A DNA stretch of 64,000 nucleotides from Antedon mediterranea. Lineage: Eukaryota > Animalia > Echinodermata. Made by a program: the position numbers and the translations under genes. Where the stretch lies: positions 29,146,104-29,210,103 of the forward strand of contig NC_092671.1 of the NCBI RefSeq assembly GCF_964355755.1, given 5' to 3'. The notes below the pieces were generated by a model, which had not been told where the DNA came from, searched no databases, and worked only from the letters and a program-made list of their open reading frames with translations. Below are positions 2,013-2,054 of this stretch, piece after piece (position 1 is the stretch's first letter; each line of letters starts with the position of its first letter).

Positions 2013-2054
<42 letters not shown>
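2013..2054 (+). other. 42-bp duplicate of 28S H68/H69 (R2 target, about -41 to +1) in the spacer
   Basis: AGCGCGGGTAAACGGCGGGAGTAACTATGACTCTCTTAAGGT, identical to 633-674. Confidence 0.97.

Follow-up and report, generated by a model that had tools for sequence, protein, structure and literature searches.

Introduction

Why does every rDNA spacer in this stretch of the Antedon mediterranea genome carry a piece of the 28S gene that ends almost exactly where the R2 retrotransposon nicks its target? Animal rDNA has harboured R2 for hundreds of millions of years, which raises the question of how hosts limit it. The preliminary description of the locus read the piece as a landing pad or decoy fixed by the host, and this interpretation as a whole was partly supported by the present analysis. 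The feature was found to be real, non-random and apparently undescribed, and R2 activity most likely produced it as a by-product. That it serves as a dead-end decoy is plausible and would be important if true. The window denotes the whole 64-kb stretch that was analyzed.

Position and Extent of the Spacer Copies

The window was a tandem rDNA array with six complete and one partial 28S genes, six 18S genes and six 5.8S genes (Rfam). The 42-mer under study had 14 matches with zero mismatches, seven of which were located in 28S, as assigned by Rfam, and seven in the spacers. No further match was present in the window when up to 3 mismatches were allowed, and none of 100 shuffled sequences contained a match. 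The donor in unit 1 was the genuine, uninserted R2 target at 633–674 (forward strand, exact match), with the nick after position 673, downstream of which the 3′ part of this first 28S gene (1–1790, forward strand, Rfam) continued. The other genuine targets started at 10103, 21840, 31293, 41831, 51269 and 60759, all on the forward strand. The spacer copies were located at 2013–2054 (BLAST), 11519–11560, 23218–23259, 32700–32741, 43209–43250, 52676–52717 and 62166–62207 in units 1 to 7, respectively, and each was an exact match on the forward strand. The distance from the Rfam 28S end to the copy was 223 bp in one unit, 259 bp in another and 250 bp in the remaining five, so that the perfect 42-mer described earlier at about 220–260 bp past 28S was recovered in all seven spacers. 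These differences in spacing reflected the variable copy number of a 9-bp tandem array (1908–1961 in unit 1, forward strand, 6–10 copies per unit), which was followed by 51 unique bases, the copy, 15 further bases and a T run.

The copy was the sole significant match of the spacers to the 18S–28S unit (7/7 spacers, BLAST, E of about 1e-16); the next best match had an E value of 0.017 and represented GC-rich microsatellite noise. Counted from R2's first-strand nick, the copy spanned −41 to +1. The nick position was that of the preliminary description, and it agreed with the downstream 28S cells of Table S2 in PMC13188248, which began at +1. Identity to 28S stopped at both ends as had been described. 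The copy thus corresponded to the upstream R2 half-site and covered the Bombyx upstream motif located 22–34 bp above the nick. Insertions were observed at 0/7 genuine 28S sites and 0/7 spacer copies within the window, and the earlier statement that all seven genuine sites were empty was borne out by the spacing between the site and the end of 28S, which was 1157 bp for five units and 1128 bp for two. An assembly artefact was unlikely, as the copy occurred in an identical unique context in seven units that differed elsewhere.

Several variations were observed within the genes themselves. A 29-nt deletion between short direct repeats affected an expansion segment near the 28S 3′ end in 2/7 units; the segment (about 11057–11085) was present in units 1, 2, 4, 6 and 7, and the two units that lacked it end at 22968 and 42959. 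Other shared variants paired units 4 and 7, and units 3 and 6.

Composition of the Surrounding Spacer

The 15 nt after the copy (2055–2069, forward strand) had a filler-DNA-like signature, with the last bases of the copy repeated at 2061–2067. A T28 run followed at 2070–2097 (forward strand), which was shorter in unit 7 and may represent a Pol I terminator element. The subrepeats beyond it (2126–4570, forward strand) consisted of a 5-bp microsatellite and a core of about 200 bp, with 7–14 cores per spacer; they were probably duplicated promoter-upstream elements, and T runs recurred in every one of them. The microsatellites that separated the subrepeats (2126–4391) had mutually complementary variants, folded into long hairpins and gave weak matches to miRNA models. 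The last subrepeat (4380–4600) entered a TA-rich and then G-rich stretch near 4585, which we take to resemble Pol I start sites.

No RNA family reached the Rfam gathering score in the spacers, and the 45 weak Rfam matches were hairpin noise that included no ribozyme family. No element ORF was found in the spacers; the six ORFs of at least 150 aa were all antisense inside 28S. A 302-codon stop-to-stop frame antisense to 28S (9062–9970, minus strand) had five sister copies, being present in 6/6 complete genes, and in all likelihood it was the open frame commonly found antisense to rRNA.

Invariance of the Copy and Its Flanks

The flanking spacer had 0 variable columns across 7/7 units, including 117 nt after 28S, 51 nt before the copy and 15 nt after it. 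Among six units, 9 variable columns in 3684 were found for 28S, and 3 in 1805 for 18S. Within the window, the conservation of the copy therefore did not exceed that of its own flanks. The copy, which is perfect in all seven spacers, had been read as fixed by the host; since the flanks were as invariant as the copy, the seven perfect copies count as one homogenized event rather than as evidence of selection, and homogenization alone accounts for them. The informative facts are the identity of the copy to 28S and its end points.

The end points were evaluated by chance models. For a piece drawn at random from the 6229-nt unit, the probability of an end point within 1 nt of the nick was 0.0005, and that of an end point within 3 nt was 0.001; by arithmetic, the chance rises to roughly 2% if a match by either of the two ends, and to any of about ten element sites that are known, is allowed. 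No significant homology was found beyond the right end, where the alignment score was reached by 337/3000, 407/5000 and 337/5000 controls, or beyond the left end, where it was reached by 929/5000 controls. With such sharp borders, the insertion of a discrete piece is a better fit than a long duplication that was cut back to a functional core. Within the 15 nt after the copy, its last 6 nt recurred (p of about 0.003 for random local bases); this duplicated-end signal rests on 6–7 nt and was noticed post hoc.

Further traces near the copy were examined and rejected. Homology past +1 with two indels, as for a cut-and-repair scar, was not significant (p of 0.07–0.11). An older decayed upstream copy as the source of the 9-bp array was dismissed, as its alignment score was reached by 361/2000 shuffles and by 183/872 other 42-mers, and an 8-nt exact word at 1894, considered as the trace of a decayed copy, was reached by 21/500 shuffles. 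Upstream of the copy, the stretches at 1801–1818 and 1894–1901 weakly resembled the −37 region of the target, likewise without significance.

R2 in the Lineage

The preliminary description had made the decoy depend on the existence of an rDNA-targeting element in the lineage, and a published R2 from Antedon bifida with matching 28S was found. A 36-base word from a variable part of 28S had a single match in Table S2 of PMC13188248, in the Antedon bifida row, which is weak alone as most of the upstream cells compared were too short to reach the region of the word. The 28S cells of this row (about 215 nt upstream and 400 nt downstream) matched about 454–670 and 674–1070 of the window by eye, including variable parts where the sea cucumber and starfish rows differed. 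These matches indicate that R2 exists in the lineage of a feather star whose 28S corresponds to that of the window, and they assign the window to Antedon or a closely related crinoid.

The element, R2-1_ABif, is listed with 4090 nt and 28S on both flanks (PMC13188248, Table S2), and three zinc-finger-like motifs were recognized by eye. Echinoderm R2s belong to the three-zinc-finger branch (PMC13188248); according to this placement, the resident R2 would be of the A lineage. Of ten echinoderm rows compared, out of 12 occurrences, seven had a readable 5′ junction end, of which six were at −5 or −3 and one at −1, and none was at +1. The junction of R2-1_ABif ended at −3, and by eye the first 400 nt of its 5′ region were unlike the spacer, its 3′ UTR ended without poly(A), and its protein was shorter between Myb and RT than in the neighboring echinoderm rows, so the published copy may be defective. 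Short 28S-like words were also seen by eye in the first and last few dozen bases of the element.

Predicted Interaction of R2 With the Copy

The recognition region of the copy (about −37 to −15) was identical to 28S, and the bases around the nick up to +1 were present. The motif surrounding the nick presumably extends from −6 to +1. The DNA covered by full-length Bombyx R2 extends from about −40 to +20, and the N-terminal domains of A-clade proteins bind only the upstream half-site, with footprints centered at −30 and −15, whereas D-clade R2 proteins bind a downstream site (PMC11204384). In the A-clade structures, every DNA-binding domain lies on upstream DNA (PMC12180492). For Bombyx R2, an upstream motif 22–34 bp above the nick and a further motif directly around the cleavage site are described (PMC12222951). 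Hence, compared with the canonical R2 target in 28S, the copy is identical from −41 to +1 and includes all the upstream contacts described in these sources; in contrast, it lies outside the gene and has nothing from +2 onward, which is the part used for primer pairing by A-lineage R2 and the downstream site of the D clade.

The consequences for insertion were considered next to the behavior of known proteins. The zebra finch R2 (R2Tg) nicked the bottom strand in the absence of 3′ homology and did not prime, and in cells it required at least 4 nt of 3′ homology; Bombyx R2, in contrast, primes without such homology (PMC12222951). In the copy, one of the first 5 downstream bases matched 28S, which is short of the pairing of at least 4 nt for A-lineage R2; if the nick slipped by one base, 3 downstream bases would pair. 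Since recognition lies upstream and only one of five downstream bases matches, we predict that the copy is a dead end for insertion: an A-lineage R2 would bind and probably nick it, but would prime insertion poorly. The landing-pad reading is thus doubtful for A-lineage R2, as the copy keeps only +1 and priming needs about 4 nt. A D-lineage R2, if present, could insert at the copy. Binding would follow by extrapolation from bird, beetle and moth proteins. Nicking is a prediction, because no test on a target changed from +2 onward was found in the literature searched, including the available part of PMC13486585.

Two other enzymes had been named for the site. I-PpoI belongs to a slime-mould intron, and its 15-bp site (−11 to +4 as quoted) matched the copy at 12/15 positions, with +2 to +4 differing. 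The weak base preferences of Pokey lie mostly downstream; in our own mapping of these preferences, the copy had the tetranucleotide, 2/2 of the preferred upstream bases and 4/8 of the downstream bases, and no report of Pokey in echinoderms was found in the available part of the same article (PMC3849761). Neither I-PpoI nor Pokey adds to the case for a decoy.

Proposed Origin of the Copy by Capture at an R2 Nick

The explanation best in agreement with these results is the capture of the half-site in the course of R2 activity, followed by concerted evolution, to which we assign a probability of about 0.5. R2 would nick the 28S site 1.4 kb upstream of a break in the spacer, and repair synthesis at this break would copy the nicked 28S site and run off at the nick. 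Filler would then be added at the right junction, and concerted evolution would likely carry this single capture into all units. Any protective effect would be incidental, and selection would not be required.

Such a capture would explain where the copy ends on the right, why its borders are sharp, how the filler arose and why no element sequence is present. The end within 1 nt of the nick was counted in its favor, together with the observation that the spacers contain no other piece derived from rRNA. Moreover, R2 junctions contain added nucleotides identical to upstream 28S (PMC3774820), and the 6-nt recurrence in the filler resembles these additions, which was also counted for the capture. 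The 5′ junction duplications of R2 in that article likewise consist of upstream target that ends at or near the nick and is followed by filler repeating target bases. However, those duplications are mostly 13–28 nt long, tandem, located in 28S and attached to an element, whereas the copy has 42 nt, lies 1.4 kb away, is free of any element and occurs in every unit.

Several points stand against the capture. The copy had zero mismatches to 28S within a fast-evolving spacer, and it must therefore be young or maintained. Its left end, at −41, falls just where the R2 footprint of about 40 bp begins on the upstream side; run-off at the nick does not explain this position, and selection for binding would explain it. 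Conversion tends to replace nicked sites by uncut alleles, as in homing and hotspot loss. If R2 cuts the copy often, such conversion would oppose its neutral fixation.

Alternative Explanations

The first alternative retains selection. The copy would be kept because it soaks up the R2 ribonucleoprotein and is nicked without priming, by which 28S is spared. The left end at the edge of the footprint and the perfect identity to 28S are the best arguments for this possibility; both ends of the copy match the upstream R2 footprint, and the copy has exactly the part needed for A-lineage binding and lacks what priming requires. The lineage has an R2, and R2Tg that was already bound did not swap its target in first-strand assays (PMC12222951), which would make a sink biochemically plausible. 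However, one copy per true target at best halves the hits by simple arithmetic, and the benefit would be shared across the array, so that a rare new variant would gain little. The short region between Myb and RT in R2-1_ABif, seen by eye, also weighs against it if the resident element is defective. With neither the true sites nor the copies inserted, the window cannot discriminate on this point. A selected decoy is plausible but considerably less likely than the capture.

Alternatively, an R2 RNA that carried a 28S leader could have been inserted off-target in the spacer, with the body of the element lost later, so that the leader and a few junction bases were left. Once cleaved by the ribozyme, R2 RNAs still carry 9–36 nt of upstream 28S, duplications at the junctions are frequent (PMC3774820), and full-length junctions in Drosophila often retain 28S up to the nick (PMC2718515). 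However, the 41 nt upstream of the nick in the copy exceed the reported 9–36 nt, none of the seven readable echinoderm junctions ended at +1, and the spacer contained neither a ribozyme family nor an element ORF. The fossil 5′ junction that the preliminary description offered as its own alternative fits the published element poorly, as the junction of R2-1_ABif lies at −3 and its 5′ UTR is by eye unlike the spacer, and such an origin appears unlikely.

A duplication independent of R2 would be neutral, or kept for a role in RNA or termination as a 28S hairpin in the 3′ external spacer before the T run. The copy folded into a 6-bp stem with a 7-nt loop, identical to the fold in the 28S context and presumably helix 69 of 28S, and it ended 15 nt before T28. 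However, the hairpin was lost when the whole 3′ spacer region was folded and occupied 19 of the 42 nt, and the ends of the copy followed the R2 footprint and the nick rather than the helix, with the chance of ending at the nick being about 0.001. This origin is accordingly considered quite improbable.

A co-opted safe break site is less probable still. A nickable site in the spacer would trigger unequal exchange and the recovery of rDNA copy number, with 28S undamaged; breaks made by R2 drive rDNA copy-number expansion in Drosophila (PMC11700107), nicking of the copy is predicted to occur without insertion, and the units differed in their number of subrepeats (7–14). According to a review, R2 may have this role in Drosophila only (PMC13580325), the true 28S sites would still be cut, and subrepeat variation is usual in spacers.

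The 3′ junction of an antisense element, in which the T run would represent the poly(A) tail of a backward retro-copy at the R2 site that was carried into the spacer with read-through 28S, would be read from T28 and the following AT-rich sequence with possible minus-strand poly(A) signals, and it is very improbable given the 15 nt between the copy and the T run, the T runs in every subrepeat, the T-rich region that also follows 28S in the honey bee (PMC2048585), the absence of any element body and the 3′ UTR of R2-1_ABif, which by eye ends without poly(A).

Relatives and Published Spacers

Public sequence data were searched for the copy in relatives. By shared words, 20/24 public runs held part of 1500–2069. 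The word share expected from 28S, the genuine site and the 9-bp array without the copy was 0.55, as against 0.54 in organisms C–E, and a run without the copy could reach a share of 0.92, which is above every observed share; word shares are therefore uninformative on the copy. The contigs of four runs gave four short pieces on 1500–2005, all on the 9-bp array (one in X5, one in X9, two in X11 and none in X10), and gaps there prove nothing. In the X11 contigs, the array was split at phases other than those predicted by the flanks in the window, weakly suggesting that the array is retained in this relative next to different flanks. Viral contigs gave 0 matches, and in a metagenome scan with the 28S 3′ motif, 6/6 loci were chance matches of 20–23 nt outside rDNA.

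No description of an R2 target copy in an rDNA spacer was found in the literature searched, outside of which most subscription papers lay; none appeared in the available parts of PMC2048585, PMC7650587, bioRxiv 10.1101/2023.02.20.529178 and PMC5035012, and no literature on crinoid rDNA spacers was found. The transposon remnants and direct repeats reported for rDNA spacers (bioRxiv 10.1101/2023.02.20.529178) are likewise spacer sequence made by mobile elements and spread by recombination, whereas the remnant here is the host target of the element and not element sequence. The fish R2 3′ UTRs with 28S-like sequence (PMC5035012) and the spacer-derived repeats of Pokey (PMC3849761) also represent exchange between rDNA and its elements. 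In those cases, the element carries pieces of rDNA, whereas here, in the opposite direction, the spacer carries the target.

Implications

The fixed spacer half-site is a natural, testable substrate that separates the binding and nicking of R2 from its insertion. If the copy is a by-product, as is most likely, it is a record that target sequence enters spacers through R2 nicks, and it cautions that such spacer copies can double or mimic R2 sites and junctions when these are counted from short reads or k-mers. If it was selected, the copy would represent a new kind of host defence that is relevant to R2-based gene insertion tools. Such a dead-end decoy, fixed in every rDNA unit as a DNA-encoded and protein-free defence that possibly evolved several times in animals, is a tentative proposal with the odds against it.
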